From assembly GCF_024223415.1 (NCBI RefSeq), contig NZ_CP100500.1: a stretch of DNA of 64,000 nucleotides. One strand, 5' to 3'. The translations under genes and the position numbers were made by a program. The stretch is from Escherichia coli. Lineage in GTDB: Bacteria; Pseudomonadota; Gammaproteobacteria; Enterobacterales; Enterobacteriaceae. The notes beneath the pieces are model-generated. The model did no database searches. It saw only the letters and a list, made by a program, of their open reading frames with translations, and was not told the DNA's origin. Below are positions 24,263 through 31,635 of this stretch, piece after piece. Position 1 is the first letter of the stretch. The number at the start of each line of letters is the position of its first letter.

Positions 24263-27239
24263 TCCGTGATGAATATCATGTTATTGTTAATGCCAGCGAA
24301 TGTGGCGTTGAATATCCGTTGCGCCGGTCCGGGTCCCGATCATGATGACCGGGACCACAGAGAGGCGATGGTTCTGTCAGAAGGTCACATTCAGCGTGGC
24401 CTGACCGTTATAGCCTTCAGCGCTGCTGCCGCTGACGCTGTGGACATAACCTGCCTGAACGCCCAGGGTGATATTTTCCCGGACACGGGCTTCCAGTCCG
24501 GCCTGCAGGTCCAGTGACGTACCATTCTGTGACGGTGAGAACGTCATGTTACTGCCGGCTGCGGCTGTACCCATGCTCATGTCCCCCCGGGAGCTGAAGG
24601 TGCGGATAACAGAAGGCTGTACCCACCAGTTCACCGGCAGTTCACGCACACTGTGTTTGGCACTGCCGCGCAGGGTGTCACGGGATGAGGTGCCTTTACC
24701 AAAGTTCATATCGTTGTGGCTGCCCAGACGGAAGCCGGCACGCACATGTTGTGCACTGCCATGCCCGAACTTCACATAACCGGCGTTATCCTGGCCGTCA
24801 TCCAGGGAGAGTCCCTGCCAGGTGTACTGCAGTTGCGGCTCCAGCATCAGATTGTCAGTGATACTGAAGGGCAGACCGGTTTCCAGCGAACCCAGCCAGC
24901 CCCAGCCCCGGGCGCGGAAGTCGTTATTGTCCGATGAGGCTTTCATGCTGTGGCGGGTTCCCTGGGCCACAATGTCAGCCCACAGGCCGGAGGCGTTGTG
25001 TATCAGATTCAGGTATCCGCCCAGGCTGCCGGCATCATCCCGGACCGTGCCGGCACGGGAGCCGTCATCATCCTTAACATCAACGGAAGAATGGCCAGCA
25101 GCACCATATACCCCCGCGGTCACAGACATACCGGCAACCTCTGTTCTGAGCAGGTCACCCTCCAGACGGACGAAGCCATAGCTGCCGCTGCTTTCCGGCG
25201 TGGCTCCACGGGCAATACCGCCGTTGTTATCGTGACCGAGATGACCGCCCTGAATGCTGAGACGGACGCTGTTATTTTCACCGCTTACACCGGTCTGATG
25301 GCTGCGGGAGCCTGCCAGAATCCGGTCATAGTCCATTGCCTGTGTCAGCATGGAGGCATACAGGGGGACTTCTTCACGATAAGCATTTTCACTGCGCAGA
25401 TACCAGCTCTCATCACTGTCCCGGTTGAGGGAGTAGTTAAAGGCACCGGCCTGCAGCTTATTCCCCTGGACAAAGGCCCCTTCCTCCGTGGTGGCACCGT
25501 TAATGGCTTCCACCACCTGAATACCCTTACCGCTGGTCGCCAGCCCCGACGCACTGTTGCCGGCGTTCACCAGGTTCAGGATGGTTTTTCCGGTTGCCCT
25601 GCCACCGTCAATGACCAGTCTGTCAGCATTGTTCTGTGCCATATCCGGGCGTACACGCAGGCTGATGGTGCCATTCTGTCCGTTCAGGTTTTTCACTTTC
25701 AGGGTTGCCGGTACGAACTTCCCTGTGCGGGTGGAGGTGAAATGAATCTGTCCGGCATGGCTGAGGTCATCCACCACCGACTGCACCGTGGCGTTATCGG
25801 GAATATTCCAGGTGGCACCAGAGGCGAGAGTGACATTCGTGGGGTCAATGGCACCGTTCAGCACAGTGCTGCCGGTCAGCTTCAGGGCTGTACCGCGCTG
25901 AGCAATGACATCCGTGGTGACGGTACTGTCGTTCAGCGTCAGCGTGCCTTCATTCAGGTTGACGGCTTTCTGGGTGAGTGTGGTGTTGCTGACAGTGAGT
26001 GTGCCACTTCCTGATTTTTCCACGCTGCCGTTACCGGTGAGAGAGCCTCCCTGCAGGAGTGCATCGCCTTCACGGATGGTCAGGGTATCGTTGTTCACCG
26101 TCTTCCCGGAAAGGGTAAGTATGGCGCCGTTATTCAGCGTGGTGGTGCCCGCCAGTGTGCCGCCCCTGGCGGTGAACAGTCCGATTTACCGTGGTATCCG
26201 TGGCCGTATCACCGGCGTTCAGCGTGAATGAACTGCCTTTTTCCAGCATCAGGGCATCCGCCTGACCGCCTCCGATACTGAATGCCTTTCCGTCGCTCCG
26301 GGTACCACTGACAGCGGCACCGGAATCGGCCAGCAGTACACCGCCATTTCCCATGGATACGGTGGTGGCGGTGCCACCGTTGCGGACATCCAGCGTTCCG
26401 CCATCATCCACGCGGGTATTAGTGGCTGTGTGTCCGGTCAGCACATCCAGGCGTCCGCCATTTTCCAGTACGACATTATCAGCTTTACCCTCCACAACAG
26501 AGAATGCTCCCAGGCGGTTTATGCCGGTAACGGTTGCAGCCGTACTGGTAACCAGTGCGCCGCCCTGCTTCAGGGTGACATTCGTGGCTGTACCACCGGC
26601 GTCCACCTGCAGTCTGCCCTTCTGATTAACGGTGGTATTCCCGGCCACACCCCCGTTTTTGACAATCTGCCAGCCGTCACTGTTTACAACAGTGCCAGAC
26701 GCCGTACCGCCGTTGTGCACATACTGGTACCCCCCATTCAGCGTGGTATCCAGTGCGTGACCATGTACAGTCTGGTCGCCGCCGGCATAAACCACAGTGG
26801 TATTTGCCGTTCCTTCAGCAGCCACAATCTGACGACCATTTTTATTGATGGTGGTGCGTACGGCATCTCCGTAGACGGTCTGCCCGGTATCACCATTTTC
26901 CGCATCCGGTCCCCCTTCCGCGCCGGTATTCACAACCGTGTCGGTTGCCACTGCGCCGGATTTGATGGCCTGCCAGCCCTTCTCATTAATGACGGTACCC
27001 GTTGCAATCCCGTCTTCATGTACCCACTGCTCACCGCCGTTCAGAGTGGTGTTCACTGCCTGCCCCTGAAGGCTCTGTCCGCCTCCGGCACTGATAACCG
27101 TGTCTGAAACGCTTCCTCCGGCATTCACTCTCTGAAGACCACCACCGGTGACAGTAGTGTTGTTGGCGGTACCGCCATTTTGTATCCATTGGCCGCCGGT
27201 ATGTAAGCGTACAGCGAGGGCCGTATTGACGGGGATGTG

Positions 27240-28778
27240 TTATTCAGCTGGCAGTGCTATGCGCCACGGAAGCAGTTCGCTGACCCGGTTGACCGGCCAG
27301 TCTGCTATGACGCCAAGCACATGGCGAAGGTAGCTTTCTGGATCCACGTCATTCAGTTTGCACGTCCCTATCAGGCTGTACAGTAGCGCTCCCCGCTCAC
27401 CACCATGGCCAGAGCCGAAGAACAGGAAGTTTTTACGACCCAGACTTACCGCCCGCAGGGCATTTTCAGCGATGTTGTTGTCGATTTCCACCCAGCCATC
27501 GTTCGCATAGTACGTCAGTGCCGGCCACTGGTTAAGTGCGTACGCGAACGCCTTCGCCAACTCTGAGTGTCGCGACAGGGTCTTCATCTTTTCACGCAAC
27601 CAGCTTTCCAGGGATTTCAACAGCGGTTTCGTTTTTCGCTGACGTTCAGCAAGCCGCTGCTCTGCCGGCATTCCCCTTATATCCGCCTCTATGGCGTACA
27701 ACTGACCGATCTGCTCCAGGGCTTCTTCCGTCAGTGCTGACGGGATGCGGACGTGCACATCGTGGATCTTTCGGCGGGCATGAGCCCAGCAGGCAGCTTC
27801 CGTTATCCCACCATTGCGATACAGCTCGTTGAACCCGGCGTACGCATCCGCTTGCAGCACACCGCTGAAGCAAGCAAGATGAGTCTGCGGATGGATGCCT
27901 TTTCTGTCCGGGCTGTAAGCGAACCACACTGCAGGTGCCAACGCTGACCCGGCATTGCGGTCATCACGAACATACGCCCACAACCGCCCGGTCTTCGTCT
28001 TCTTATTACCCGGCATCAGTACCTGGACCGGGGTATCATCGGCATGGAGTTTGCCGTCAGTCATGACATAGCCATGAAGCGCCTCTTCCAGCGGAGACAG
28101 CAGCCGGCAGCATGCATCCACCCAGCCCGACAGCAGTGAACGGCTCAGCTCCACACCTTGCCGGCCGTATATTTCTGACTGGCGATACAGCGGGGTGTGC
28201 TCTGCATACTTCGAGGTCAGCACGCGGGCCAGCAGCCCCGGTCCGGCGATACCCCGCTCGATGGGCCGCGAAGGTGCAGGTGCCTGCACGATGGCATCGC
28301 ACTGAGTACAGGCATGTTTTTCCCGTACCGTCCGGATAACCCGGAAGGCGCTACGCATCAACTCCAGCTGTTCGGCGGTATCCTCGCCCAGATAGCTCAG
28401 TGAACCGCCGCAGTTCGGGCAGCACGGCGCCGCAGGCAACAGTCGCTTTTCGTCACGGGGTAGTGATTCAGGGAACGGCTTACGGATGCGGGTCTGACGC
28501 AACGGACGCTGTACTGCCGGGTCATACACCCTACCAGTCAGCGTATCGCTCTCTTTCTGAAGCTGGTTCAGATCGGCTTCCATTTGTGCGATACGGCGGG
28601 AGACTTTTTCGGAACGACTGCCGAAGTTCATCCGGCGGAGTTTATCCAGCTGCGCCTGCAGATGGTCTATTTCGCGCTCCCGGTTGCTCAGCTTTTCCTG
28701 CAGGGCGTGGATCAGCGCTTCCTGTTCGGCCAGGCGCTGTTTCAGCAGGAAGATGTCGTCAGAAGAGATGTCGTTCAT
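27240..28778 (-). CDS. IS66-family transposase (TnpC)
   Basis: 512-aa ORF with N-terminal leucine-zipper region, Cys-rich segment and DDE core. Confidence 0.9.
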
Positions 28779-28827
28779 AAGCCCGTATTTTACCGGGCTT
28801 ATTCTGTGACAACCAGGATAAAGAGAT

Positions 28828-31054: not shown

Positions 31055-31593
31055 CTGAAACTGTCCAGGTTTTGGGGTTCAGTTCATTGGCCTCGTTATC
31101 CGGCCCATACTCCAGCCCGGTACTGATGGTCATTCCGTTGGCCGTACCGAAGACAATCTGGTTGTCATGATTTGTCAGTGTTCCGTCGTTCACGGTTTCT
31201 CCCGCCTGTACAACCGTGTCAGCAGCCAGTGCCGGGACTGATGTGACAGCAGCAAGAGACAGCGCAACCGCCACACCGGCGCGTTTTCCCCGTGAGCGGG
31301 CCAGTTCGGAGGCCACCACCAGGGTGCCCGTAATGTGATTCCATACCAGCCTGTAGCTGGTGTTCAGATGTCGTTTCATCAGCTTTTCCTTACAGAGGGT
31401 GAATAAAAAAGCCGGTACCCACAGATGTGGGTACCGGCAGGTACAAAACAGCATGGTCAGATAAAGTGGTTTTTCCCGGACATAAATGTTTCCCCTCTCT
31501 CATCCGCCAGAGAAGCATCAGTCCGTTGTGTGCAATTCCGTTCTGCATGATGAAGAGATTCAGCTGCCTTTTCGCAGACCATTAACCACTATA

Positions 31594-31635
31594 AACGATC
31601 GATAGTAACGATCGATACCTGTTTTATCGATCGTT
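31594..31635 (-). promoter_or_regulatory. agn43 phase-variation switch region with three GATC (Dam) sites overlapping the expected OxyR site
   Basis: GATC at 31597, 31610 and 31629 within 36 bp, about 220-250 bp upstream of the flu start codon. Confidence 0.7.

Follow-up and report, generated by a model that had tools for sequence, protein, structure and literature searches.

An Escherichia coli antigen 43 gene interrupted by IS1397, ISEc8 and a two-base deletion behind a preserved phase-variation region

Introduction

In Escherichia coli K-12, the gene of the autotransporter antigen 43 (Ag43), known as flu or agn43, is controlled by OxyR and Dam and, in addition, by antitermination of the IsrC leader (PMC5389530); isrC itself is listed under the heading of flu gene attenuation (PMC5811629). 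Truncated or pseudogene agn43 alleles have been met in genome comparisons of extraintestinal pathogenic E. coli (PMC3203889, Table 2 footnotes). Among the insertion sequences (IS) of this species, IS1397 inserts specifically into the palindromic units (or repetitive extragenic palindromes, REP) of bacterial interspersed mosaic elements (BIMEs) (PMC1525189, citing Clement et al. 1999; Wilde et al. 2001, 2003). Here, we analyse an agn43 locus in which IS1397 and a second element, ISEc8, lie almost side by side. The locus is contained in a stretch of 64,000 nucleotides of E. coli contig NZ_CP100500.1 (assembly GCF_024223415.1), hereafter called the window. ISEc8, which belongs to the IS66 family, is common in the chromosomes of Shiga-toxin-producing E. 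coli (STEC) and on pO157.

We propose, with a probability of roughly 0.9, that three independent lesions private to one lineage inactivated the agn43 gene of a CP4-44-like island, i.e., the insertion of IS1397, the insertion of ISEc8 and the loss of two bases. The original prediction for this locus had named the two elements by family only. The identification of IS1397 brings in the targeting of palindromic units, and it is for this reason the most informative point added here.

The Three Lesions

The agn43 gene lies on the minus strand, from an ATG at 31379 to a stop at 24377, and is now in three pieces. The 5' fragment (31087..31379) holds 97 codons and 2 nt, which encode the ESPR signal peptide and the first part of the passenger, and the cut falls within codon 98, just where a break after about codon 97 had been predicted. 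The 3' portion (24377..27202, minus strand) runs from the remainder of codon 98 to codon 1039. Between the two IS termini there are 10 bases of agn43 sequence (29645-29654), made up of the 8-bp ISEc8 target duplication and 2 further bp.

The first element (29655..31086, plus strand, antisense to agn43) had been described as a member of the IS3 family with the target duplication TTG, and it is a 1432-bp copy of IS1397. Its ends are TGAACTGCACCCC...GGGGTTCAGTTCA, which read TGAACTG...CAGTTCA on the agn43 strand, and TTG (CAA on the minus strand) is found at both 31087..31089 and 29652-29654. It carries orfA at 29697-30227 and an orfB that reaches 31054 through a programmed frameshift, and the NCBIfam model transpos_IS3 matches both open reading frames (ORFs). 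It is 100% identical over its 1432 bp to annotated IS1397 copies in at least nine complete genomes, where the annotation reads 'IS3-like element IS1397 family transposase, programmed frameshift'. Hence, size (about 1.43 kb), TG...CA inverted repeats, orfA and orfB joined by a programmed -1 frameshift and a duplication of 3-4 bp are all those of IS1397. What departs from the description of this element is its place, since IS1397 normally occupies the central part of a BIME palindromic unit, between genes; this departure concerns the target, and not the identity of the element.

The second element (27203..29644, minus strand, in the orientation of agn43) is, as predicted, an IS66-family element with a target duplication of its own. 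Its best matches are annotated ISEc8. It measures 2442 bp, ends in GTAAGCGTACAG...CTGTACGCTTAC (GTAAGCG...CGCTTAC on the agn43 strand) and is flanked by the 8-bp duplication GCCGGTAT (minus strand ATACCGGC) at 27195..27202 and 29645-29652. The genes tnpA (29172-29573), tnpB (28828-29175) and tnpC (27240-28778) follow one another in the order expected of ISEc8 and match the IS66 TnpA, TnpB and DDE transposase models; the GTAAGCG terminal repeats are likewise those of this element. One other copy (L081) is 100% identical to it, and 20 more are 99.3-99.96% identical.

Base 29652 is common to both target duplications, which bears out the view that the insertions are adjacent, not nested, and overlap by a single base of target. 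That the elements are only 10 bp apart could suggest that one entered the other, or that they arrived jointly as a composite unit. However, neither element is interrupted by the other, both being complete and matching free-standing copies at 100% identity, and each is bounded by its own direct repeat of agn43 sequence, with agn43 sequence again as the 10-bp spacer. We regard a nested or composite origin as extremely improbable.

The third lesion was located by removing both elements, together with one copy of each duplication, in silico, and by aligning the product with K-12 flu and with a second intact allele. The excision restored the frame exactly, so that it does resume at the IS66-family junction, and the alignment confirmed the junctions and the frameshift. 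The sole coding-region indel left is a 2-base gap (GG) between 26184 and 26183, seen against both alleles, which changes GTAAATGGCGGACTG to GTAAATCGGACTG on the minus strand. The loss of two bases had thus been correctly called, but not its position, which had been put near 26165, about 20 bp away. The deletion lies about 2 kb into agn43. The shifted frame meets a premature stop at 26130-26132, and the 3' portion is broken in this way into ORFs of 332 and 573 amino acids (aa). When the elements are excised and the GG is put back, an uninterrupted ORF of 1039 aa is obtained, the length of K-12 Ag43.

We assign the gene to agn43 from the annotation under every one of its best matches, from a nucleotide identity of 92% to K-12 flu and from its domains. 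Indeed, the Pfam ESPR model matches the product of the 5' end, and the Pertactin, AC_1 and Autotransporter models match the 573-aa ORF. Together with the repaired 1039-aa ORF, these are the features of Ag43 and of self-associating autotransporters, whose product of about 1039 aa joins an extended ESPR signal peptide and a beta-helical passenger to a C-terminal autotransporter barrel, and the present state of the gene is that of a pseudogene. No Ag43 can be produced from this locus. The only product left is a peptide of 122 aa, encoded by the 5' fragment as it continues into IS1397 up to a stop at 31011, and composed of the signal peptide, about 46 passenger residues and 24 residues encoded by the IS. 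Cells presumably do not autoaggregate by means of this locus, and the isolate should lack the Ag43 autoaggregation and biofilm formation that depend on it.

Reality, Rarity and Age of the Lesions

IS repeats are classic places of misassembly, so the possibility that the junctions or the frameshift are assembly or sequencing artefacts has to be weighed. We searched 5,426 complete E. coli genomes. None of the three junctions, i.e., IS1397/ISEc8, agn43/IS1397 and ISEc8/agn43, has a match there, the best matches of the agn43/IS1397 junction being other IS1397 copies at 85-90% identity, and no complete genome has either outer junction alone as a single insertion. The 2-bp deletion is likewise found in none of them. 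For the frameshift region, the best matches align 103 bases to 101 query bases at 98.1% identity, with no better full-length match; they are 2 bases longer than the query, and thus no complete genome shares the deletion.

On the other hand, exact-protein look-ups of the 122-aa fusion peptide and of the 332-aa frameshifted ORF each returned one draft assembly, GCA_900482235.1. Two of its contigs bear on the locus (UDHK01000041.1 and UDHK01000015.1; L088 and L089). One crosses the agn43/IS1397 junction, and the second crosses the ISEc8/agn43 junction and holds the same GTAAATCGGACTG deletion, the motif being present in L089. Over 11.6 kb, the window and these contigs differ by 3 mismatches, which points to one shared lineage or to a single strain that was sequenced twice, independently. 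Exact look-ups of the 147-aa ORF with an upstream start and of the 573-aa 3' ORF gave no match; for the latter, the cause is probably a single-nucleotide polymorphism between the window and the draft assembly.

Perfect target duplications around full-length elements are the traces of real transposition. Here they have the length expected for each family (3 bp and 8 bp), and the exact restoration of the frame on excision is difficult to reconcile with a misassembly. The deleted GG is outside any long homopolymer. Moreover, the independent draft has both outer junctions and the same deletion. Taken with the perfect duplications, this rules out an artefact of a single assembly, and although the 10-bp inner junction between the elements has been seen in this window only, we find an artefactual origin of the lesions very improbable.

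Each of the two elements has other copies at 100% identity, and alleles standing before an intact agn43 match the regulatory region at the same 100% (see below). From these identities the lesions are judged to be recent and, from the genome survey, private to the lineage.

Target Choice by IS1397

IS1397 is known for its target, and we have derived its rule from 47 unique natural right flanks, taken from 8 annotated copies and from a metagenome scan for the right end of the IS. All 8 annotated copies are intergenic. In 44 of the 47 right flanks, the motif ATC[CA]GGC starts 5-12 nt from the IS end, with a mode at 11 nt (23/47). At natural sites for which both flanks are available, IS1397 sits in the middle of GCCGGATnnGnCG / CGnCnnATCCGGC and is surrounded by a 3-4 bp duplication.

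The flank within agn43 reads TTG-GCCTCGTTATCCGGCC, where GCCTCGTTATCCGGCC (31090..31105, plus strand), next to the right end of IS1397, mimics half of a palindromic unit. ATCCGGC starts there 11 nt from the IS end, i.e., at the modal distance, while ATC[CA]GGC occurs in the window at a frequency of 2.7e-4 per position and strand. The longer motif TTATCCGGCC is found once in the 64 kb, at the IS1397 site. With other IS1397 copies, in 94 genomes, BLAST alignments continued past the IS1397 end for 26-34 bases of the agn43 flank. We also built a position weight matrix from all 47 flanks, without selection, and scored it on the window emptied of its elements. With 8.64 bits, the agn43 site exceeds the median score of the flanks used for training (5.8), and it ranks 62nd among 120,182 position-strands of the window (top 0.05%) and 4th among 6,188 within agn43. 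The insertion into codon 98 would then be explained by codons ~90-97 of agn43, whose sequence coincides by chance with the right half of a palindromic unit, GCCTcgTTATCCGGCC, and places ATCCGGC 11 nt from the IS end, the modal distance.

Several observations weigh against the explanation proposed for the locus. The agn43 target, a piece of coding sequence without a significant fold, does not qualify as a true palindromic unit. In single-stranded form it reaches -5.7 kcal/mol (z -0.2 versus shuffled sequences), against -11 to -12 kcal/mol (z -3 to -6) for real units. The left half of the site is out of register, with GCCGG 2 nt from the duplication versus about 8 in the canonical arrangement, and our explanation of the target depends on a half-site match that was noticed after the fact. 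As for ISEc8, no target consensus in or around the 8-bp site appears in 17 other insertions with intact duplications (at most ~0.5 bit per position), and a targeting of IS3-family ends by this element was considered and rejected, so that neither accounts for the adjacency. The confinement of the inner junction to this window, already mentioned, belongs to the same side of the balance.

We had also considered that the agn43 target could be a true, hairpin-forming palindromic unit. This was rejected, the fold being no better than that of shuffled sequences, in favour of a mimic of the half-site sequence. Indeed, the definition of a palindromic unit, REP or BIME, i.e., an imperfect palindrome of about 35 bp that is repeated, intergenic and able to form a stable stem-loop, does not describe the agn43 site, which has nothing in common with true units but TTATCCGGCC and an inverted repeat of 5 bp (GCCGG/CCGGC). 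We consider that IS1397 probably recognised the sequence of this half unit, and it is likely through the half site that the transposase was engaged. A half-unit site devoid of a stable hairpin has thus been hit naturally, which suggests that the IS1397 transposase may read the half-site sequence and not the hairpin structure.

Among the natural sites, a few deserve mention. In NZ_CM142773.1, between ybiB and hcxB (L007), IS1397 lies in a terminator-like hairpin, GCCGGA|TGAG|CCACGTCATCCGGCTTTT. Its left/right asymmetry is that of the agn43 site, and an off-centre insertion beside a right-half motif is thus not unique. A few other natural flanks (L013, L025, L034, L045) have no canonical right-half motif or only a look-alike. 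L013 shows GACAGGC at offset 11; in L034, only the left half is canonical; L045 carries TTATCCGGCC in a context that is not a palindromic unit; and nothing recognisable is seen in L025.

ISEc8 and the Adjacency of the Two Elements

ISEc8, with its lack of target consensus, would have entered 8 bp whose first base is also the final one of the triplet targeted by IS1397, and the GG would have been lost about 2 kb into the gene. Either order of the two insertions reproduces the observed arrangement, and for this reason the order is not readable from the sequence. An exact look-up of the fusion peptide expected of an intermediate with ISEc8 only gave no match. As a default, we take the adjacency of the elements to be due to chance, favoured by relaxed selection in a gene that was already dead, and we hold this to be likely.

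Alternatively, the site could be a hot spot, in which the DNA itself or the first element attracted the second, through a distorted structure resembling a palindromic unit, a bound transposase or an IS end. The one-base overlap of the target duplications speaks for such an attraction, as does the improbability of a second insertion within a few bp when about 40 kb of dispensable island are available. Several ISEc8 copies are, moreover, located inside other IS elements (L084, L072 and L066). Nevertheless, none of the 17 ISEc8 sites without consensus abuts an IS3-family terminus (0/17), no stable hairpin is predicted at the agn43 site, and an accumulation of one IS in another is equally expected under relaxed selection; the present case was, in addition, chosen because it is striking. 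We therefore consider a hot spot to be possible but unlikely, and a chance adjacency is retained.

Partial flank matches of the junctions by BLAST, in pO157 and other STEC plasmids, correspond to ISEc8 copies beside espP, inside rspB and inside a truncated ISEc48. A preference for CGGTAT, common to the duplications of the window (GCCGGTAT) and of pO157 (ATCGGTAT), was entertained and rejected in view of the 17 sites. The flank TGAACTTCAC of the copy L072, which looks like an IS3 terminus, is the coding sequence of an IS30 transposase and has no similarity to IS1397. The copies inside other elements are one in another ISEc8 (L084), one in this IS30 transposase gene (L072) and one in the truncated ISEc48 (L066); they suggest an accumulation in DNA that was already dispensable.

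The Regulatory Region

The region upstream of the broken gene is preserved. Three GATC sites are found on the minus strand at 31629-31632, 31610-31613 and 31597-31600, so that the Dam/OxyR region spans 31597..31632; its preservation had been foreseen, with an extent (31597-31629) that stopped short of the end of the outermost site. The sites are at +11, +30 and +43 from the -10 hexamer, in the window as in K-12 and in a genome with an intact agn43 (L011). The putative promoter (31638..31666, minus strand) consists of a -35 box TTGCGT (31666-31661), a 17-nt spacer and a -10 box TAGAAT (31643-31638). This assignment follows from alignment with the K-12 promoter (TTGTCC, 17 nt, TAGAAT), and a generic promoter scan did not call the agn43 promoter. 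Three GATC sites with conserved spacing, inside the OxyR-binding region and just downstream of a promoter, are the sequence signature of the Dam/OxyR switch.

The leader RNA is also complete. Rfam model RF00124 (IS102, the IsrC of the K-12 annotation) matches 31398..31634 on the minus strand over model positions 1-206 of 206, with a score of 73.2 bits where the gathering threshold is 46, and Rfam gives no other match in the 64 kb. The leader ends at an intrinsic terminator hairpin (31438-31411) with a 12-bp stem, 9 G-C pairs and a T run, in agreement with IsrC. As the leader and its terminator are intact, the switch retains an intact first RNA product. It may still flip between heritable ON and OFF states, by Dam methylation versus OxyR binding, and may still yield IsrC.

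The 671 bases 31090-31760, which take in the regulatory region and 290 bases at the start of agn43, are 100% identical to three genomes with an intact agn43 (L011 among them). Between the GATC sites, the window has a common allele, unlike that of K-12 and the same as in alleles before intact agn43. Hence the statement that a switch survives in front of a dead gene holds at the level of sequence, and the recency of the lesions accounts for it, since there has been no time for the region to decay. A 2-base difference is seen around 31395 (minus strand), just upstream of the agn43 ribosome-binding site, with CTC--TGTAAGG versus CTCAATCTAAGG in K-12 and in the allele H1. It is part of the common allele, shared at 100% identity by genomes in which agn43 is intact, and it is thus a variation and not a lesion.

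Could the switch have been kept by selection for a use independent of Ag43, for instance a phase-variable IsrC or the control of IS transcription? The integrity of the IsrC/IS102 leader and of its terminator would agree with such a use, as would the position of ISEc8, which lies downstream in sense and is separated from the leader by no more than weak terminator-like sites. However, recency, attested by the 100% identities of the elements and of the regulatory region, fully explains the intactness. Moreover, IsrC has been described as the leader and attenuator of flu (PMC5389530, PMC5811629), and no flu-independent function of IsrC emerges here. Selection of this kind appears highly unlikely to us, and we read the identity of the region to working alleles as a mark of recency and not of a conservation of the switch.

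A further possibility, bolder and quite unlikely, is that the freed switch acts as a phase-variable driver of IS transcription and makes transposition heritably bimodal, or that one IS truly targets another across families. In ON cells, transcription beyond the IsrC terminator would cross IS1397 in antisense and then enter tnpA-tnpB-tnpC of ISEc8 in sense, the terminator-like sites between the agn43 leader and ISEc8 being weak ones only.

Island Context

The neighbours of agn43 form a CP4-44-like module, with genes for a YeeP-like GTPase, a YeeR-like protein, IrmA, DUF932, RadC/YeeS, DUF5983 and DUF4942. The YeeP-like GTPase gene (31749..32660, minus strand) is upstream of agn43. Downstream, the YeeR-like gene (21740..24262, minus strand; PF27347 YeeR_C) is followed by a homologue of IrmA, the interleukin receptor mimic (21209-21664, minus strand). 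The YeeR-like ORF is 840 aa long, versus the 510 aa implied by the K-12 yeeR coordinates. The island stands beside setC (14021-15205), in a core region that is 100% identical to several E. coli chromosomes. At its border, neither selC, which on the K-12 map is expected beside setC, nor any other tRNA was found; ARAGORN gave no tRNA gene in the window (1-64000), and Rfam no tRNA or tRNA-Sec. The island is rich in IS, with an IS21-type istB accompanied by a short istA-like ORF, and another IS3-family transposase, at 39929-41729 and ~42270-45150.

Comparison with Known Systems

The locus amounts to a natural construct that uncouples the agn43 switch and the IsrC leader from Ag43 production. Its private double-IS junction would be usable as a lineage marker, and the finding has little import beyond the strain.

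Compared with K-12 flu, in CP4-44, the locus presents the same order of yeeP-like GTPase gene, IsrC leader, agn43 and yeeR-like gene. The repaired product has the same 1039 aa, the nucleotide identity is 92%, and the GATC offsets from the -10 hexamer and the IS102 leader with its terminator are shared. The gene of the window differs in being broken by IS1397, ISEc8 and the 2-bp deletion, and the allele between the GATC sites is another one; the island, moreover, is located next to setC and not at the CP4-44 site.

The ISEc8 copy resembles described ones in every respect (2442 bp, tnpA-tnpB-tnpC, GTAAGCG termini, 8-bp duplication, 99.3-100% identity to 21 copies); the element itself is no different, and only its position abutting another IS is worthy of note. 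The IS1397 copy is equally typical as an element, with 100% identity over 1432 bp, a 3-bp duplication where natural sites have 3-4 bp, and ATCCGGC at the modal distance. Its target differs, being coding sequence and not a palindromic unit, with the right half only and no stable predicted hairpin. The presence of IS1397 within a gene, at a half-site mimic, is the only mildly unusual feature of the locus.

Finally, although the double-insertion allele is found in 0 of the 5,426 complete genomes and in one draft only, the locus resembles other surface and virulence genes inactivated by IS elements, in that a phase-variable adhesin was lost through mobile elements and a frameshift. The event is of a known and ordinary kind, i.e., a recent, lineage-private pseudogene made from well-known parts.

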